A stretch of DNA of 58,161 nt, counting the filler, from Dirinaria sp. TL-2023a (lineage: Eukaryota), in NCBI GenBank assembly GCA_051941275.1. It is 2 parts of 2 records of this genome, joined end to end, with 100 filler letters (N's around TTAATTAATTAA, not from the genome) between each part and the next. Parts side by side here need not be neighbours in the genome. Positions count along the whole stretch, not along the records: positions 1 to 29,120 come from JAVEBF010000119.1; 1 more part is not named here. One strand, written 5' to 3'. Numbering within the stretch: the stretch's first letter is position 1; each line of letters opens with the position of its first letter. This document shows positions 8,218 to 38,884 of this stretch, piece after piece. The notes beneath the pieces were generated by a model that saw nothing but the letters and a program-made list of their open reading frames with translations, ran no database searches and had not been told where the DNA came from. The translations under genes were made by a program, and so were the position numbers.

Positions 8218-9234
8218 TCATTCATGTTCTTCCTCCTCAGCTTCACTCGCACTGCTAGACTCCTCCCCAAACTCGGCCTCCTCGGCCTGAATCTCGCGCG
8301 CGCGGTTCAAAATCATATTCTTGACCACACGGCGATACACGATCCCGGGGCGATTGCAGGCGACATACTCTTCGAGGTTCTCCCAGTCGACCTGGAACAC
8401 GATCTCGTTGGCCAGGCGCTCCAGCTCGAGCGACGAGAGACGGTTCTGGTAGATCTTCACGGGCCCGCGCTCGACCGTGTTAATGACCGCGTAGCGCGGG
8501 TTCTGGCAGTAGCGGCGCTTCTTCGTGGGTGGGGTGCTGTCCGGTGTTGGCATTTTGTTGTTGTTGTCGGTGCCGGCGGGTTTGTTAGTGGAGCGGGGTG
8601 CGAGTGGGGAGCTGGGTTCTGCGGTTGGAGACAGGGGGCGTTTGGTGCCTTTCATGGGAGTCGAGGCTGGTGTCGGTGGGAGGTGGAGCTGTGGGACTTT
8701 GAAGCGTCCGAAGGTTACTGTTGGGGCTCCTTTCGTCGCCGGCGTGGTCGGCATAAGCGTCTTTGACGTGCTGGGGGTCTGCGGGGATAGTGCCTCCGCC
8801 GCGGTAAGATCGATCACTTCAGGCTCTTTCTGCGCACGATGGTTAGTACATATAGATGCTGGGATGGGAGCAACGGTAGATTGTACCTTAATGAACTCGA
8901 GTTTCACTGGGGTACGCGGGGACAGTGCCTCCGCTCCGGTGAGATCGATCACCCCGGGCTCTTGCTGCGCACGATGGTTAGTATATGTACACGTTAGGAT
9001 TGGAGCAACAGTGGTTTGTACCTTGATAAACTCAGACATCACACCAGTCTCATCGCTGAGCATTGTGCTCATGTCTCGGGTGAAAGCTAGAGGGTGGATC
9101 TCTCCAGTCCAGACGGGGCTGGTGACGCTGGGGAAATAGGCTGGGCTCGGAAAGTCGAAGTCGAAGTCGCTCATAAAAGGGGATCTGGGCGGGCCATTCC
9201 TGACAATGGGGCTAGGGAGCCCGCCGAAGAACAT
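8218..9234 (-). CDS. Disordered protein with duplicated 45-aa unit (VIDLT SIM-like) and C-terminal Myb/SANT-like helical domain
   Basis: Intronless 338-aa ORF, Pro/Thr-rich, KKRR NLS-like motif, VDWENLEEYV..NR segment. Confidence 0.7.
   Translation of the reverse strand: MFFGGLPSPIVRNGPPRSPFMSDFDFDFPSPAYFPSVTSPVWTGEIHPLAFTRDMSTMLSDETGVMSEFIKVQTTVAPILTCTYTNHRAQQEPGVIDLTGAEALSPRTPVKLEFIKVQSTVAPIPASICTNHRAQKEPEVIDLTAAEALSPQTPSTSKTLMPTTPATKGAPTVTFGRFKVPQLHLPPTPASTPMKGTKRPLSPTAEPSSPLAPRSTNKPAGTDNNNKMPTPDSTPPTKKRRYCQNPRYAVINTVERGPVKIYQNRLSSLELERLANEIVFQVDWENLEEYVACNRPGIVYRRVVKNMILNRAREIQAEEAEFGEESSSASEAEEEEHE
8770..9033 (-). repeat. In-frame tandem duplication, 135-nt period, 2 copies
   Basis: EFIKVQTTVAPILTCTYTNHRAQQEPGVIDLTGAEALSPRTP vs EFIKVQSTVAPIPASICTNHRAQKEPEVIDLTAAEALSPQTP; copies start at 9033 and 8898. 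Confidence 0.95.
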
Positions 9235-17730: not shown

Positions 17731-18472
17731 GGGTGGCTGAATGAAGGGTCTGACTTGGAAGAGCCAGGTGGCAACCCCCTTGCCACCACTTTCCAGCCAG
17801 GAGAACTGGATCCGAGTCTGTCCTCAACCAATATCAATCCCGTGTTCTGGCTGATGCGCAATTAATATTCTACACTGAGATAATACAATTGAGGTACGCC
17901 TGTAACTGTTATGATCTGGTTCTGGTATGCGACACTTGTGCATAGTCTGCTTTGTGTATAGAGAGATTCTGTGTATAGAAATTTGGTGTAGGGATACTTA
18001 CTCTCACTTCCGCTCCATCTCAGCGGAGGAATCTACACACATTTGTGAGTCGCGGTCAAGTCGCGGTGAGTTGCATGTGATTCCCAGTCACAGTGTCTTC
18101 ACTTGCGTTGAGTGATGGGAAGGAGCCACTCACTCTATTCACCTCATTCACCGGTTCCAGCACTTGGCCGGATTCGGTTAAGCCTCCTTCACTAGCGTCC
18201 CTCATCCATAAATTTCTGGAGCTGCACCTCCTTCCTCTTACTTCTTCCACTCCCAACAACAAGACACTGTCCACGACAACAACTTTTCTCAAATCTTTCA
18301 AGCACCTCTTCTAGGGCACCTAGCTACCCTTCCACCCCCTCAATCAAGCATTTCCACAAAGGCCTCAATTCCCGCCTTTGCACGAATAAACAATTCGGCA
18401 ACATTTCGGCAGAACCCAATCCAAAGTTCAAGTGCAAGTCTTTGTACAAGACAAATCCCAAGTCTCAACACC

Positions 18473-20651: not shown

Positions 20652-21385
20652 CTAAACTGAATGATTCGCATCTCGAACCATTGTTTCAATATATGTTCCT
20701 TCCATCTCAGGAAAGGCTTCCTTGTCAACATAATTGTGCTTATCAATTGTCCGGAATCCATGTTTCTCGTACAATCCGTATTTGACAGCGGTACCACTGC
20801 TTTCAACCATAGCTCTGCAGCCTTTCTCATCGATAATACGGGCAGCCCACTGCAATAACATTGTTGCTGCGCCCTCTCGCTGGCGAGCGGGATCCGTACC
20901 TAAAGCCTGTAGATCTGCGTAGGTCAGACATCGGAATAAGTCTACTCTCTTTTATAGGTGTGCAAGCATGTCAGGTGCTTACAGCAGTAGGGGCCGGGCA
21001 ACTGCAACTCTCTGAAGCCACGCCTTCGGTTGTTCTTCGTATTGAAGAACCACTCCACAAACGGTCGGTACTCGCTATCGACGTGGGGAAAGCGGATCTC
21101 ACTGTCTTTGGCGCCAGTTAATGGGTTTCCATCAAACATGGGCATCGTGGCAAAAGCGCATATCTGTCCCGTGTCATCGTCGACAACTTTTGCAACTTTG
21201 ACATCGGGTCTCGTCCATCCCAGAGATACTTTGAATCGCGCTACGTTCTGTGATCGAGCAGAATCCTCGAGTCCGCCAGGGTAAAGTTCTCTCAGGACGG
21301 GCTCATTGACGAAGGCTTTGTATTGGATCAGAAATAATGGTTCGAAATCCTCGACTTCTATAGTCTCGCTGAGGGAGAAAGACAT
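20652..21385 (-). CDS. GNAT family N-acetyltransferase
   Basis: Intron 20982..20915 joins exons to give YLQALGTDPARQREGAATMLLQW (motif A) and GLYEKHGF (motif B). Confidence 0.9.
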
Positions 21386-22276
21386 GCCGATTTCAATATC
21401 TGCGTCATGTCACAATGCTAGTGCATAGTAACAAAGATCGATGCTTGTGGGAAATACGAAGTTATGGACTCTTCCTGAACAGGTCACGATTAGGTAGGAT
21501 TCATCGGCTGCTCAACAACTTCGGGCAGTGCATGGCGCGAAAAGTCCGATAAAGATCTTTACCAGAGAAGATCAGAGAAGTTTCATATGCGTACATGCAT
21601 TAAGATCCCCCTATGACATAAGTATCTGTACGAGTACAGAGAATGACGCCGTAAGTCCTGGTTAGCGCTGTCAGCTCACCTAGTGTGGATAAGCTGAAGA
21701 CCCCTGCCCTTAAAGGACCCCTGGGACACCCGGACGAGGCAAATTGCTATCTACTTAGGATGCAGCTGTGCTCGCCAAAGCGCACCTGTAGGTGGTCACC
21801 TACACCACCTAGTCTTGGCAGGCATTGCGCAAGCCAGACCTATCGGCATCGTTCTTCATACCTGGAGCCGCCCAAGCTGCCTGCAGCCCACTTCCAGCTC
21901 CACTGCACGATATGCCTTGTTTGTAGGGTCTTCCCAGCTGCATTTTGGTTTCACGAGAAGCTCGGTAAAATAGGGGAAGCTGGCGAAGTACGCATGGGAC
22001 CATCCACCACGGACCACCTGTTTTGGCAATTGCGCCGGTACGAGGCCCTACGACAACTGCTTGCGCTCCGGATCGACAATTATGTGCAAACCGTGCCGTA
22101 TTACCAAAGTCGGCTGGAGTCCGTTTGCAAATCGGTGAAACAACCGAATATCAAGCATTTGATGCTAGAGCAATTAAAAGGCTGGACACCTTCGCGGGAA
22201 AGAGTCTCGGAAATCAACACACATACTCGCTCAGGGCCACATAAACAGAATAAGCAGCATCCAAGTCGAAATTGAA

Positions 22277-22555
22277 ATGCAGTTGAAGCAATACATTCTG
22301 AGCTTGCTCATTCCCAGCATTGTGGCTATGGCTTTACCCGCAACAAGTCAGTATTGTCTTCAAACATCGGTGATGTTGTTAGACTGACTTGAAGCGAACG
22401 TAGATAGTACAACCGCTCCCCAACCCCAAGAGAGCAGACATCTTCCCCCCGGTATAGAGGCTTTCAACGGGATAAGTGCGTATACTGGAGATGTCGATGC
22501 ACTTTGGTACGTAGCAAATCGCGACTTGGAATAAACCACGGCTAATCTCGAAAGA
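22277..22555 (+). CDS. Small secreted peptide (~57-66 aa), candidate RiPP precursor
   Basis: ATG 22277, MQLKQYILSLLIPSIVAMALPAT signal peptide; intron 22347..22403 (GTCAGT...CTGAC...TAG); exon 2 NSTTAPQPQESRHLPPGIEAFNGISAYTGDVDAL; C-terminus depends on a second intron ending 22554. Confidence 0.65.
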
Positions 22556-22955
22556 CATTGATTGATTCCCCTTAGTATTTGGGAAGATAGCTCCGGCAGG
22601 AGGCTTGAATTCGGAGGCTTGGAATCTGAAGGATGTTGGAACGAGATCCGCAAGCAGTTCGAGTGATCACATACCGCATTAGAGAAGGCGTATGGACTGT
22701 ACAATAGCACATTCATTTTCTATCTTTTGAACCATGGCCGTTCTTTAGCCATTTAGTATACTTGTTTAGTTTCATCCACGTGTGGGACAAACATCGATGT
22801 TTTCGAGCGTTCTAGACTTTGTTGCTCTTATTTGTTGGTGCATCTCGGTCCAAATCATAAAGCCTGGGCCACCAGATGCTGGTGCGAGAAGATTTCGAAA
22901 CCATACTTCATAGAAAACGTATTCAGCGCAGATGATGATTTTAGAAGCCATTCAA

Positions 22956-23863
22956 TTAATCTGCGCCCAGCCTCTCCCCCGGGTTGCGTCCGTTAGGACA
23001 GTGCTTAAAGCTCTCGAGCGGAATCCCGTCCTCCAACGTCTCTACCGGTCGATACCGGTAACAAGCAGAGTGTTCCTCCGCCCAGCGCTCCAACTTCTTC
23101 CAGTCCCTGCACATCCTGACCTGACCAAGTCCGGAGGAAGGGACCTTGGGATTTTTCGGAAGGAATCCCGTGTACCGGGGCGTATCGTCCGCATTACACA
23201 TGATATCCTGTCTGATAGCATCCAAACAATGGTTCACGTGCGTGAAATGCATAGTCTGCGGCACCTTGTCGTGCATCTCCGTGAGAGCGGTGCGTATAAT
23301 GATCTGCAGCACTTTAGTGGAAAGATGGAATAGGTTTGAAACTGGTGTTTTAGGAAGCGTACGAGACAGTGCAGGTTATGGTGGCTCTGCAGCAGGTAAA
23401 GGCCCTTGGAGCTGTCCCACGGCCACCGCTGAGCCTCGGGAATGCCTGTCTTGGCCACCATGTCGTCGCTGATGGCGACCAGACCCGCGTCCGGGTTTAT
23501 ACTCTTCCACGCTTCGTCCCAGATACTCCGGTTGTGGCTCGCGAAATCACTGTCGTCGTTAAATGCTACGGGGACGTTGCGCTCGAGGCCAGCTGCAGGA
23601 TTTGAGTCAATTGTGTTCTATGTTGTAAGTACAAGCATCCTACCATAAGCTGTCTTGCTATGGCAAGCCTTGTCGGTGGTGCGCGTGATGTGTAGGATGA
23701 TCCAAAGACCGTTTGCAGAGAGGGACAGAAAGAGAATGAGTAGACAGGTGCCAGCGAGTAAAGAGTGTCGGCCGGTTGTCCGGTAATGATACGCGGCCAG
23801 GGAGTTGCTATCGTCGTCGGATGGATTGTCGTCTGATATAAGTTGATACTCTTTTGAAGACAT
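22956..23863 (-). CDS. UstYa/DUF3328 family oxidase (HXXHC x2)
   Basis: N-terminal TM helix (CLLILFLSLSANGLWIL), AQRWPWDSSKGLYLLQSHHNLHCL, HVNHCLDAIRQDIMCNADDTP, GQVRMCRDW; two introns. Confidence 0.92.
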
Positions 23864-25272
23864 TCTGAATACAGGAGTCTCAATGGAGTTCGAGGTTAAT
23901 TCAAGCAAATTTCGCTATACACGATGGATGGATCTTTTTGCACTTATCACTCTATCTACATAGAGTTGGGAAGATATGGTACGATATTGTGCCTCTTGTG
24001 CATGGTTCAGGGTAGAACGAGTCATCCCATAGCTATTACGGCCCCCTCTGCCTGATTGAAGGAGAGCTAGCACCTTAGACAGGACCCTACCGGGAAATGT
24101 TTCACTACGCAACATAAAACCAAACCTCCATCAAGGCATTGGACAGCCATTCTCCGAAGCAATCATTCTGGACCACAGCCCCATCCCTCTCGTTATGAAT
24201 CGCTCCGATTAGCCCAATGACAGGTTGCGATGCAAGGAAGAGGCAATGTTCATCATTCTGAGCAGAAGCCAAGTAGTTGAATGGGTCAAGGATCGTACCG
24301 AAAGCATACGAGGCAAATGAGAGACACCGCTTAATACAGTATAGCGCCATCGGGGGGGGGGGGCTGCATTAGTCACCACCAGCTGCTCAAGCGAGGTGCA
24401 GTTAAGCTATCCAAACATTAGAACGCCGAGGCAGCTGCACGTATAATCCGGAGCTGGAGACGACCTTGGCTCAAAGACAGCTGAAATCGATGCGTTCCGA
24501 AACACGAGATAGGACCATCTTACGCGGCCATTCCCATTCAAGCGCTCTGGTCCGATGTATATGCCGTATGGACGTCATGTCCGTCTTGGAGCGTGAGCGC
24601 AGCTCGGCCCCCATGTTGACGTATTCAAATTTTGCAGACGTCTCACGTAAGTTCTGCGGCCCTGCTCATCGATGATACATGTGCCCAGAGTTTGCCATGG
24701 ATGGACCTTTCCCGAGCGTCTCGATCCGAAGACTGAACTTGGAAAGTGATACACTGCCTCGCTCAATAATCCATGATGAAACTCTTACTACCACGCAGCC
24801 GAGACTCTAAAGGATACTGAACGATGGTTCTTGGTTTCAGCTTGATCAATTATACTCTACTCGTTTCCCCTCCGGAGCTGTCGTGTCGTTCCACACCGTG
24901 CTCGGCGCGATGGCGTGACTAGTGCTATGGAGCCCTGACAGATCGCTTCCGCTCCACTGTTTACGGTGGAATTGCTCGTTTGACCTACATGAAGATCAGC
25001 GCCGTTGCATCATTGATGATCAGTGGGGTTCCCCCTGTCCGGCCCGTAAAACGCTCTCGATGATTTTCCCGATCAACGTTCTGATGCCCCGGCACTAATG
25101 TGGCCTTGCTCATGATATTGCAAGGCACCGCAAGGATGTCTCCGGATTCCCTCAATGTCTTGCTTTTTACTATGTCGAACTGTCTCCTCTCCCAAATAAA
25201 TCCTTCATCGTACTGATGTTCCTTCAAAGATCGATCATTCTGGAGGTACCTTGATTAATCAAGGTTTTCGAA

Positions 25273-30142: not shown

Positions 30143-32044
30143 CTAAGGATGATAAAACCGTCCCATTGCACTCGCCGGCATTTCAGCCATGCGTTTCTGC
30201 TTGTAGATCGGGCTCGTGCCAGTATAGTTGCCCGTCTGGGTTGTGAAATCGGATGTATCGCTGAAATCGGGGATGCGGCCCAGGAGTTTCTCGACGACGC
30301 GGTAGGCGGCGCCGGGCGCGTAGCCGGGGAGTTCTGTGAGGAAGCATGTTTAGTAGAGTCTTTTTGTGTGGGATGTGATCACGTGGTGGTGGATTGGAGA
30401 AAAAGGGCTAAGTCTTACCGTGACCCGCAAGCTGCACTTGATAGAACGTCAACCCGCGCTCAGAACCCCAATAGCCTACTATGCCCGCGCCGGCCAGCGC
30501 ACCGCCATTGTATTCCGGGTGATATGGTACGTAGAACTCCGTGCCCGGGAATTCCTGCAGTCCTTGCTTGCCGTTCCAAGTCACGTTCTGCAGAGCGGTC
30601 AGGGTTCCGTTGGTGGGGAGAATATAGTCGAGATTGCCAACGCCGATGATGGTGTTGTTCGTCGACTCGATCACGTGCTGCAAGGTCCCGTCCCGCGCGG
30701 GGCCCGGCGAGGTGTCGCTCAAGTTCTGGTTATCGGTGGCTCCGCCGAAAACGTTGACGGGCGTACATTGATACCAGTCCGTGGGCGGCGCATTGATGGC
30801 TTTCTGCACGTCGCTGCGGTTGAAATAGGCTACGAGACCCGGCGGTATGTAGTCTCCTGGGTTGACGCCTCCGGTAACACTGAACGGATGTGGGCAGGTT
30901 TCGGTGACGTGATAGATGTTGAAGCAGGGATTCACTTCAAGAAGCGCGTAGTACACGTCATCGAAGATGTCGCACGTGTAGTTGGGGGAGTCGTAGGGGT
31001 CGGGGAGGACTGGGAAGGGGCCTGGTGGAGGTGGGTATTGAAGGTATTTCTCGAGGTAGGCACTGTACCCGCACGCGTCTTGTTTGGCGTGGATTGCGTC
31101 CAGAAAGGTCTCGTTGAGAAAGAAAAGCTTGGACCAGTAATCGATGAAGGGAACGATGACGGCTTGTTCTTGAAGCGTGTCATCGCCAATGATGGGATCG
31201 TTGATGGCTATACCCGCGAGGTTGTAGTAGACCGGATCATTCGCGTTGATGAACGCATCGGCGATATACGGTACGTAGTATCCAGCATAGCTCTCACCAG
31301 TGATGTAGACCTTTCGATTCTGAACCTGAAATGCGTCGACGAAACTCTTGTAGAAACCTATGAACTCCAGGCCGAGCTGAACTTCGTTCGTGATATTAGG
31401 TACGCCTTGTGTGTAGCCGACACCGACCGGTTGCTCCACCCAAATCATGTTGGTCAAATTGACCCATGTGTAGGGATTTTGAACCGGCGCTTCTGTGCCC
31501 GCCTCCCAGGTGAAAGGGCCATTCTCGGTCAGCAGACCAGAAAGAGAGCTGCAGCCTGGGCCGCCGTTGAGCCTGTAGGGAAAAATTAGGTGAGGCTGTA
31601 GTGTATGGACAAACAGTCATTCATTCTTACCATATCGTTATTTCGTCGGCTGCGGCCGTGTTAGAGGAAGGAAAGAACCAGAAAAAGAGTTCGCGGGTCT
31701 CGTTGGGGGCGGATGAAATCGGAAGAAGCCCAGCGTAGGACTCGCCCACGTCAAATGGGACATCTGGTATACCAGTGCCATTTACGACGAATTCTCCATT
31801 GCAGATCAGCATGGGCTTCCAGGAAGCTCGGAAAAAGCTTTGGTGTCTTACTTTCGGTGTTGGCGTTGAGGTACTGCGACGCTCGCTTCTCCAGCCTTGG
31901 GTTACTGAAAGGCTCCGTAGGCGTCCTTCGCTCAATCACGGGAGCCTTGTTGGCGACCCTCCTGGCCACCTTCTGGGCCGGATTGAGCGCGGATACAGAG
32001 GACGCACATAGCAGCGCGCTAACAAACGTTAGAGAAAACTTCAT
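30143..32044 (-). CDS. Secreted serine carboxypeptidase (S10, CpdS-like)
   Basis: Signal peptide [23 protein letters not shown] pro-site, [22 protein letters not shown] nucleophile, QLAGH|ELPGY; three introns. Confidence 0.93.
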
Positions 32045-35076: not shown

Positions 35077-35362
35077 ATGCGCCTAATCATTACCCTCTCC
35101 GCCTTGTTGGTACTCGCGGCAGGCGCTCTGGCGGCGCCGTATCCTACCGAGCAGATACTAAGAGTAAAGTCCCCTCCAACCCCAAAACGCTGGAAGATCG
35201 CGCACTGATTTTTTCTTTGATCAGAGCTCCGGTCCTTGCGATTACAACCTGCACCGATGTGCGCCCGGCGACACGGCATGCTGCCAGGTTGCACGTGCCC
35301 GGATGGAGATGCGTAGTGTGGAAAGCAGCGAAGAGGGGCTTCGACTGTCAGAAATCGCATGA
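35077..35362 (+). CDS. 74-aa secreted cysteine peptide
   Basis: MRLIITLSALLVLAAGALAAPYPTEQILR | intron 35164..35224 | SSGPCDYNLHRCAPGDTACCQVARARMEMRSVESSEEGLRLSEIA*; TATAA at 34861. Confidence 0.7.
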
Positions 35363-35667: not shown

Positions 35668-37146
35668 TCAATCGCGAAATGCTTTTCGCGGATCCTGCGT
35701 GAGATAGTCATACATGTCCGGGCTCCTTTCTAGTAGCCTGAGCTCCGTCTCCTTCAGGACGCTCTCTGGTAGGACTTTGTGTGCGCGCTTCTGGCCCCTG
35801 GGCGCACGCCAGACTACCACAGACTGCTTTCGGTTGACATTCTCTTTATCGACAGTAACTTCCCACCCACGTAGAGCCTTCGTGTCATAGTCGCCTCGGT
35901 CTTCGCTGCCCGGCCCACCGAGAAAGGTGCGCGTTCTGACAGAAGGGTGTATATACTCATGGGTGTTTCTGAGCGGTTTTCCCATAGGTTTTCCCGTCCG
36001 ACGATTGATTCTATAATAACCTCCTGGTGTGCGAGTAGCAGTGCCGGCAATGAGATACGCCGCTGTTAGTGAATTATAGATTTTGCCAAACGACCATGGC
36101 CGAGTCTTCTCGTGCTTGGTGCGGTAGTAAGTCTTGTTTTTTCCATATTGTTGGAGTAAGAAGTCAGGGTGAAAGTCAATGAAGGGTTCTAGCTGCGACA
36201 TCATCCACGCCAAGGTTATATTGGCAATTTCCTGGTCCGGATAACCTCCACCGACGTTCGAATGAACCCCTGGGAACCAAACCTGCTTCAGATTGGTAGT
36301 GCAGTTTTTTGATTTCTCCCACAAAGCGGGCGAAAACGCTGCGCGCCGCTCTTCGAGACACAGCGCTTGGAATGCGTTCTCTACAAAGTCATCAATCGTA
36401 GTATCGTAGAATTGGAAAGCTTTCATTCTCGACGACTGAAGCCCCAGTCTCTCTAGCCAAGGGACTCGTGGAATACCCAATGATCCCACAGTCTCCCACA
36501 CTCCAATGGCCTTTACGGAAATTCCCAGAGTCGTCAACCCTCGCGCTTCTAGCTGCTCCACATATGAAGGGTCCTTGAAGGAGGGTTTGTTAGGGAACGG
36601 AGTATTGGGATACTTTGGCTTATAATCGTCATCCTCTCGATGAATATAGTCCTCAAAGATCTCCCCGAAATACGGAAGCCCCGCTTTCGTTAGTAGACCT
36701 AGATCACCAATAAGACCGCCTATGCTTCGGGCGGTAAAGGCACCGCGCGAGAAGCCGAGAAGAAAGATCTCATCTCCGTGCATGAAATTCGTCGACAGGA
36801 AACTATAACCTTCCCGGATATTTTCTTTGATGCCTTCACCAGTGAGGCCGCCAGCAACACGCATGAGAGTGCCGCCTTGGGAGCCGACACCGGATTGGTA
36901 ATAGACGATCTGCGATCTACCCCGGTCGTCCTTGTCGTTGATCGCCCAGCCAATACGTGCGACATTACTCGGATGCTCGAGAACGCCGGACCGAAGATTC
37001 AGCGAATCGAGCCATGTCCCTGTTGGCATTCATGAGCGTGAGCGACTCCACCACTTACGCCGAGGGCTACGCGTACCGTCGCAGGTTACTATCAGCTTTT
37101 TGGAGGGCATGAATGGGGGTTGCGATGGTCGTCTTGCTACAGCCAT
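35668..37146 (-). CDS. DUF2235 (Tle1-like alpha/beta hydrolase) protein
   Basis: KKLIVTCD|GTW, YYQSGVG, GFSRGAFTAR, GVWETVGSLG, QVWFPGVHSNVGGG. Confidence 0.92.
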
Positions 37147-37723: not shown

Positions 37724-38884
37724 ATGAGTACGAGAGCAGATACCGGGCCCCCACAAGGCCAGCTCAAATATATGACCCCCTACACCATCGCCTCCGACCC
37801 ACCCGAGCCCAAGCCAATCCCTGATCTCACCCATCCCACCGCGTCTCCTTCCGAACGAGCCTCGGCGCGCTTCTCGCTCGCTGGGAAACACGCTCTCGGT
37901 ATGGCCCCGTTCTTGTCTTCCGATCCCTAGCCTCTCAATCTCTCCACTTCCTTTCTATTCATTTTCGATTATCGTACGAAGAAAACAATTCAGAAACTGA
38001 ACGCCAAGAGTCACCGGCGGCGCGCAAGGCCTGGGTCTCGTATCCGCCCGCGCGCTTCTTGAGCACGGGGTGTCCCATCTTGCCATCTTCGACATAGACG
38101 CACAGCAAGGCGCGCTCGCCGTGGAGCATTACCGGAGCATCAGTAGCCCCGAAATCAAGCCCGTGGTCGTGTTTCGCAAGGTGGATGTTTCGGATGAGGG
38201 CCAAGTCAATGAAGCGGTCGGAGAGATAGCGGCGGAGTTCGGAGGGATCGATATCCTGCTTTGCTTTGCTGGGATCACGGGGAGTCGACTAGCAGTCGAG
38301 TATCCGATCGAGGAGTGGCGCAGGATTTTCAATGTGAATGTGCATGGAAGCTTTTTGACAGCCAGAGCGGTGGCTCGGTTCGCCCCCCGACCCTCTGCCC
38401 TCCCATTCTATTGATTGAACAGAACTATTCTCCTTGTTGACTCAGTGGGCTAGAGATATCATAGCCAGAAAAGCGAGCGGATCGATCGTTTTCACCGCGT
38501 CCATGTCAGGGTACATTGTCAACCAGCCACAACCGCACTCGGCATACGCAATCTCTAAAGCGGGCGTGCACCACCTTGCGCGCTCCATGGCCGGCGAATG
38601 GGTGGGGCATAATATCCGTGTCAACTCCATTTCTCCGGGCATCATGAATACGCGTTTGTCGGGTGGGCCGACGCAGGCTGAGCTCCGGCGGTTGTGGATG
38701 GAGAAGAGCCCTATGGGGATAGGGGACCCGGAAGATTTGACTGGCGCTGTTGTTCTGTTGTGTAGTGATGCCGGCAGATTCATGACCGGCATGGATATTA
38801 AAATCGACGGTAAATGGTGCGACAGGCGAAGTGAAATATTTGAGGCTGACTGGAAGATTATTAGGTGGGTATACGATCTTCTAG
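37724..38884 (+). CDS. Short-chain dehydrogenase/reductase (polyol/arabinitol dehydrogenase-like)
   Basis: TGGAQGLG, CFAGI, ASMSG..VNQPQPHSAYAISK, IRVNSISPG, IDG|GYTIF*; three introns. Confidence 0.9.

Follow-up and report, generated by a model that had tools for sequence, protein, structure and literature searches.

A stretch of 58,161 nt of DNA from Dirinaria sp. TL-2023a, all of which was analysed and is further referred to as the window, contains on its plus strand what may be a three-exon gene (22277–22346, 22404–22506 and 22576–22666) for an 87-aa preprotein. It lies between a GNAT acetyltransferase gene and a UstYa/DUF3328 gene. We lean slightly towards a real gene at this locus. Our best explanation, which we hold tentatively, is that the gene is unannotated and lineage-restricted and encodes an orphan small secreted protein. 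Judging from the sequence, transcription would proceed from the 870-bp divergent region common with the GNAT gene, and two short introns would be spliced out. The signal peptide would then lead the product into the ER and be cut off after Ala19 (AMA-LP), and the remaining 68-aa acidic protein, with a predicted pI of about 4.5, would be exported via the secretory pathway.

Exon structure and predicted product

The first-pass annotation of this locus had described an ATG at 22277 with a signal-peptide-like start, a 57-nt intron at 22347–22403 and three possible C-termini; translation reproduced all of these at the same positions. Exon 1 (22277–22346, + strand) opens with the start codon at 22277–22279, which is the first ATG of its frame (ORF 22178–22387). 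Its translation begins MQLKQYILSLLIPSIVAMALPAT, comprises the signal-peptide-like segment MQLKQYILSLLIPSIVAMA followed by LPAT, and ends in phase 1. By eye, and unquantified, there is no ATG within positions 22165–22276 upstream, and a CAATTAAAAGG motif is present about 100 nt 5' of the start. Intron 1 (22347–22403, + strand, 57 nt) is canonical, with a GTCAGT donor, a branch-like GACTGAC and a TAG acceptor, and its removal restores the frame, joining to ...NSTTAPQPQESRHLPPGIEAFNGISAYTGDVDAL. Exon 2 (22404–22506, + strand) translates from 22404 as ...ESRHLPPGIEAFNGISAYTGDVDAL; it supplies N-STTAPQPQESRHLPPGIEAFNGISAYTGDVDAL and then the TG of a split codon, and it holds the segment AYTGDVDAL, proposed in the first-pass annotation as the core of a modified peptide. 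In the preferred model, intron 2 (22507–22575, + strand, 69 nt, in frame) reads GTACGT...GGCTAAT...CCCCTTAG, and exon 3 (22576–22666, + strand) encodes (C)IWEDSSGRRLEFGGLESEGCWNEIRKQFE and ends with the TGA stop at 22664–22666. Both introns have GTNNGT donors, CTRAY branch motifs and YAG acceptors, and the reading frame stays open.

The three C-termini noticed earlier are as follows: the intron 22507–22554 creates a stop codon split into TG and A, giving 57 aa; read-through gives ...ALWYVANRDLE before the TAA stop at 22532–22534, 66 aa in total; and the donor at 22476 combined with the acceptor at 22554 gives ...EAFNGINID, 50 aa. A fourth one, absent from the first-pass annotation, results from the intron 22507–22575 and yields 87 aa ending in ...DVDALCIWEDSSGRRLEFGGLESEGCWNEIRKQFE, and an in-frame CAG acceptor at 22590 (intron 22507–22590) gives 82 aa. 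The acceptor at 22554 is AAG, as against the usual YAG, and the first YAG past the CTAAT branch-like motif is the TAG at 22573–22575. The C-terminus would thus belong to a form of 87, 82, 66 or 57 aa, and the splice consensus, by which alone the choice was made, favours the 87-aa model with the acceptor at 22575 over the other acceptors.

Several features of the nucleotide sequence accompany this structure. An AATAAA at 22529–22534 (+ strand) overlaps the TAA stop of the 66-aa read-through form, and an early poly(A) site here could yield that form without the second intron. Exon 3 carries a 14-nt tandem duplication, GGAGGCTTGAATTC / GGAGGCTTGGAATC, at 22599–22626 (+ strand), which encodes ...RRLEFGGLES.... 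The intron 1 region 22335–22410 (+ strand) folds into a hairpin of −21.5 kcal/mol (z −3.2; 2 of 200 shuffles equal it) in which the inverted repeat 22339–22352 / 22383–22396 brings the 5' splice site, GUCAGU, into pairing with the ACUGAC of the branch region. This hairpin could obstruct or regulate splicing; alternatively, it may be a mere consequence of mutually complementary consensus motifs. RNA-family and tRNA searches found no RNA families and no tRNAs.

The N-terminus preceding LP looks like a signal peptide, in that its n-region bears a Lys, its hydrophobic core is free of charges and it includes the cleavage motif A-x-A; this was called by a crude rule of our own devising that also accepts unconvincing sequences in the window (e.g., at 17927 and 33468). 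In the 87-aa model the predicted mature protein contains a single N-glycosylation sequon, NST at residue 24, and two cysteines, C58 and C78, which could make one disulfide. Its only Tyr is Tyr46, in the context ...GISAYTGD.... The sole dibasic site, RR at 66–67, exists in the 87-aa model only and is downstream of the proposed core; it could be cleaved by kexin. Small secreted proteins as a class have a signal peptide, a length below 300 aa, no further transmembrane segment and no known domain. The candidate, with its signal-peptide-like start, agrees with this description in each respect.

Chance expectation, codon usage and homologue searches

The alternative that bears most directly on the existence of the gene is that there is none, and that chance alone produced the ORF in GNAT–UstYa intergenic or promoter DNA, possibly under UTRs or a non-coding transcript. 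We consider this a substantial possibility, if a minority one. To obtain a null expectation, an order-2 Markov model was used to simulate 400 windows of 58,161 nt, both strands of which were scanned. Intronless ATG ORFs that begin like a signal peptide and run to 57 aa or more occur 3.29 times per simulated window, and five are found in the real one. A bare signal-peptide-like ORF is therefore unremarkable, and this rate of about 3.3 per window favours the absence of a gene. For ORFs of the same class (at least 57 aa, signal-peptide-like) with at least one consensus intron inside the coding sequence, the rate falls to 0.37 per simulated window, with three in the real window. With two such introns it is 0.02 (8 of 400 simulations), with one in the real window, a result that argues against chance, its significance being somewhat overstated because the criteria postdate the candidate and the Markov null is simpler than real intergenic DNA.

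Codon usage was trained on twelve long ORFs of the window, nine of them Pfam-supported and three with partial or no family support. The 87-aa model scores 0.049 per codon, 4.2 bits in total. Held-out coding chunks of the window (n = 46) have a mean of 0.078 with an sd of 0.076, and 26% of them score below the 87-aa model. Of 3095 simulated ORFs of 87 codons without a stop, 4.6% score 0.049 per codon or more. By exon, the scores in the proposed frame are +0.077, +0.036 and +0.088 per codon for exons 1, 2 and 3, respectively. Codon usage mildly favours the + strand frames of the candidate; that all three exons are positive in the proposed frame, and the antisense and alternative frames are not, counts against the absence of a gene. 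The candidate is short and the codon-usage signal is weak, and its total of just 4.2 bits counts in the opposite direction. Since two of the three frames remain open for about 30 codons past 22575, the open exon 3 is weak evidence.

Other reading frames of the region were considered and rejected. The antisense ORFs 22363–22719 and 22382–22666 match no Pfam family, and their codon usage scores −0.124 and −0.003. The donor at 22476 was discarded, since it leads into an exon-3 frame that scores −0.138 per codon; the earlier idea that splicing switches the core is accordingly left unsupported. A 206-aa stop-to-stop ORF (21655–22275, + strand), ending one base before the candidate ATG, belongs to no Pfam family, has a codon score of −0.044 and is unrecognised by ESM Atlas (best score 0.78). 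It is most likely a chance ORF within the promoter region. As an example of long chance ORFs occurring locally, it favours the reading without a gene.

The 48-aa exon-2 ORF had no match in a word search of proteins of 26–84 aa and no usable match in ESM Atlas. An exhaustive phmmer search of 1.84 billion representative proteins gave no credible relative and two matches only, the 641-aa Cys-rich repeat protein P0001 and the 278-aa repetitive ORF P0002, both dismissed on inspection as composition or repeat artefacts. A query reading through from exon 2 to exon 3, with X at the two intron stops, had no match among proteins of 47–151 aa, and the Pfam scan assigned the candidate to no family. Tblastn revealed no paralogues in the window; a marginal match at 38831–38658 (E 0.04) was set aside, being antisense to a gene-sized ORF that was taken by eye for a dehydrogenase.

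Neither exon 2 nor exon 3 has a self-match in public proteins, though these include, as an annotated protein of 265 aa, the exact sequence of the neighbouring UstYa, so that the annotators called no gene at the candidate locus. The supposition that gene finders would miss this ORF thus proved correct, and given the absence of both homologues and self-matches we treat the candidate as unannotated and orphan. The same facts, no annotated protein and no homologue in the sets of 26–84 aa, 1.84 billion and 47–151 aa proteins, are what would be seen if no gene existed. Against that, small orphan genes without RNA-seq support are often missed by annotation pipelines.

The spacing of the locus fits a gene. 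The GNAT gene (20652–21409, identified by Pfam) is divergent from the candidate, with its start at 21409, and 870 bp separate the two. The UstYa gene faces the candidate tail to tail, its stop lying 289 bp from that of the 87-aa model. The candidate therefore occupies the 1.55-kb gap from the GNAT start to the UstYa stop (22956), with an 870-bp divergent promoter region on one side and a 289-bp convergent 3' gap on the other.

The UstYa neighbour and the possibility of a RiPP precursor

The neighbouring gene (22956–23863, − strand; exons 23863–23644, 23592–23363 and 23303–22956) encodes 265 aa and matches Pfam PF11807 with an E-value of 2.9e-27 and 96.4 bits, the curated cut-off being 25. It contains both HXXHC motifs, HNLHC (H145–C149) and HVNHC (H172–C176), and an N-terminal hydrophobic anchor, the stretch LLAGTCLLILFLSLSANGLWIIL. 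The predicted protein thus combines what is expected of the PF11807 family, namely a match above the cut-off, two HXXHC motifs and an N-terminal anchor, and with the Pfam match and both motifs the gene called DUF3328 in the first-pass annotation is a genuine UstYa/DUF3328 gene. Our hand-built model is 100% identical to the annotated 'MAG: hypothetical protein Q9191_001480 [Dirinaria sp. TL-2023a]' (P0003). Both motifs are conserved among 27 relatives (alignment A1), with H145, H148, C149, H172, H175 and C176 invariant or nearly so. The closest relative, with 61% identity, comes from the lichen fungus Teloschistes flavicans (P0004), and relatives at about 50% identity are found in Botrytis, Penicillium, Talaromyces, Aspergillus and Beauveria, which represent several fungal classes. 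The 229-aa annotation of P0004 lacks the block bearing the first HXXHC (A1 columns about 226–287), a block that the other relatives keep; probably this is a mis-spliced annotation rather than a real loss. No relatives of the UstYa profile with a solved structure were found, and tblastn found no second UstYa gene in the window.

The Pfam scans covered 30 selected ORFs throughout the window and 62 more, picked from the 121 ORFs with a start between 9 and 36 kb and a length of 75 aa or more. Around the candidate they identified, among others, an RRM protein, the GNAT protein, a Fung_rhodopsin membrane protein and an ArfGap protein. An S10 carboxypeptidase gene (30411–31935) is 7.5 kb away along the window, and a P450 gene is 18 kb from the candidate; leaving aside GNAT and UstYa, these neighbours look like housekeeping genes. 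A second ORF whose signal-peptide start is convincing is located at 35077–35205 (+ strand), with the start MRLIITLSALLVLAAGALA followed by APYP...; it is 43 aa long unspliced, or 67 aa if one consensus intron is removed. It adjoins a Tle1-like/DUF2235 gene (35668–37029, − strand), and here too a small secreted protein may have gone unannotated. Positions 8774–9033 hold 1.9 copies of a 135-nt repeat unit (82% match, score 366).

Adjacency to UstYa suggests another product, namely a single-core, Kex2-independent, dikaritin-like RiPP precursor. In that case UstYa would cross-link the side chain of Tyr46 in the ER and peptidases would release a cyclic peptide. We regard this as unlikely. Dikaritin and epichloecyclin precursors are described as carrying a signal peptide and cores that are repeated and each flanked by kexin sites, with a DUF3328 gene nearby (PMC6514808, PMC9233826, PMC7329392, PMC10540207, PMC12048977). 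The candidate possesses two of these features, a signal-peptide-like N-terminus according to the crude rule and an adjacent UstYa gene with two HXXHC motifs. The direct adjacency to such a gene speaks for a precursor, as does the compartment that the two products would share, given the predicted signal peptide of the one and the N-terminal hydrophobic anchor of the other. Repeats and kexin sites, in contrast, are lacking, which counts against it: no tandem repeats were detected in 21400–24200, the only direct repeat being the 14-nt duplication in exon 3; the score for aligning one half of the protein with the other is no higher than for shuffles, 721 of 2000 of which reach it; and the candidate has no KR or LXKR site. 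Nor is there a coding tandem repeat or an ORF with regularly spaced KR sites anywhere in the window, so that no classical precursor is available there to serve UstYa instead, a point in favour of the candidate.

Accessory genes are defined by Ding et al., as quoted in PMC12048977, as those for a tyrosinase, methyltransferase, transporter or peptidase. Among the Pfam-scanned ORFs, from which short or heavily spliced genes could escape, no tyrosinase, methyltransferase or transporter gene was found, either in the window or near the candidate, which likewise weighs against a precursor.

The literature on the family points both ways. UstYa/DUF3328 genes are reported to be widespread in lichen-forming fungi (PMC12048977). 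As stated in PMC7329392, the frequency of DUF3328 genes peaks at the position adjoining precursor genes, in favour of this reading; the same source gives only 31.8% of 9399 DUF3328 counts as lying within 15 genes of a repeat precursor, against it. The family is also described as active in NRPS and PKS pathways (PMC12048977), which counts against it too. Two conserved groups of lichen UstY-containing clusters are reported in the same paper to have no identifiable repeat precursor; one explanation offered there is 'a single core peptide', which again favours a precursor such as this one.

The first-pass annotation had compared the AYTG of the candidate to the asperipin-2a core FYYTGY. The tripeptide YTG does occur both in this core and in the epichloecyclin D core INFKIPYTG, and it was counted in favour of a precursor. 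However, when the peptide was shuffled 20000 times, a tripeptide of one of seven published cores turned up in 2006 cases for the 38-aa form and in 2524 for the 68-aa form, so that the likeness is at the chance level of 10–13%. The core had further been placed at the C-terminus. In the 87-aa splice model, which is the best supported, AYTGDVDAL lies inside the protein, ahead of a tail of 30 residues that contains Cys, a further argument against the precursor. The distribution of relatives also disagrees with it: relatives of UstYa at about 50% identity are spread over several fungal classes, and none was detected for the peptide. Complex prediction for UstYa residues 72–265 with the 33-aa exon-2 peptide, run without use of our alignment, gave a score of 0.02 (mark 0.34), which favours neither side.

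Adjacency is thus the one piece of positive evidence for the RiPP-precursor claim, next to a protein with no repeats, no KR site and no relative among 1.84 billion proteins. On present evidence the tail-to-tail pair is a neighbourhood and not a demonstrated enzyme and substrate. That this ORF supplies a stand-alone lichen UstYa with its missing substrate, i.e., a single-copy, kexin-independent, intron-split precursor whose Tyr segment is cross-linked in the secretory pathway, we consider very unlikely. If true, it would be the first example of a non-repeat class of dikaritin-type precursors and would account for the failure of repeat-based mining to find precursors in lichen UstY loci (PMC12048977). 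Since lichen UstY cluster groups exist in which no precursor has been found, a concrete, testable candidate beside UstYa is useful even at these low odds. Should the locus instead encode only an orphan secreted protein, as we prefer to think, then a small spliced signal-peptide gene has escaped annotation in a public genome of a lichen fungus; neither repeat-based RiPP miners nor secretome surveys would see genes of this kind.

Comparison with known systems

The ustiloxin system (UstA, UstYa and UstYb) resembles the candidate locus in the PF11807 neighbour with both HXXHC motifs, and UstA resembles the candidate in the signal peptide and the acidic residues near Tyr. It differs in that UstA is described as carrying 16 copies of YAIG, each between ED and KR (PMC6514808, PMC9233826), and the candidate carries nothing of the sort. 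Tyrosinase, methyltransferase and second UstY genes, which belong to the ustiloxin system, were not found among the scanned ORFs of the window.

Asperipin-2a of Aspergillus flavus is made from the precursor AprA with the DUF3328 oxidase AprY, encoded in a minimal four-gene cluster aprA/aprY/aprT/aprR (PMC6514808). As at the candidate locus, a small secretory protein is encoded beside a single UstYa-family gene, and YTG is common to the core FYYTGY and the candidate. AprA, however, is described as a repetitive precursor that came from a survey of Kex2-processed repeat proteins, and the candidate segment is present in one copy without KR. The asperipin core uses several Tyr residues, whereas the mature part of the candidate has one, which also argues against a precursor of this type. 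Among the Pfam-scanned ORFs, no transporter or reductase gene was found alongside the candidate, unlike in the asperipin cluster.

The epichloecyclin precursor GigA consists, like the candidate, of a signal peptide and then a Tyr-containing core. The core INFKIPYTG and the candidate segment ...FNGISAYTG both end in YTG and, in an alignment made by eye, are identical at 4 of 9 positions. GigA is described as built of 27-mer units with LXKR kexin sites at their boundaries and the core starting right after the cut, and no such site precedes the Tyr segment of the candidate. The gigA cluster is described as including gigC, for a SET-domain methyltransferase, and kexB, neither of which was found near the candidate among the Pfam-scanned ORFs. 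For the single core there is a published precedent in the single-repeat gigA-like genes reported from Aciculosporium take (PMC10540207), which adds to the points in favour of a RiPP precursor.

The closest comparison for the preferred reading is with the orphan small secreted proteins of filamentous fungi, which are candidate effectors. The candidate differs from them in having only two cysteines and a UstYa gene alongside, and its own secretion is predicted. It shares with them the lack of a later transmembrane segment, of a Pfam family and of any homologue found in our searches, as well as a short length (87 aa), a predicted signal peptide and few cysteines.
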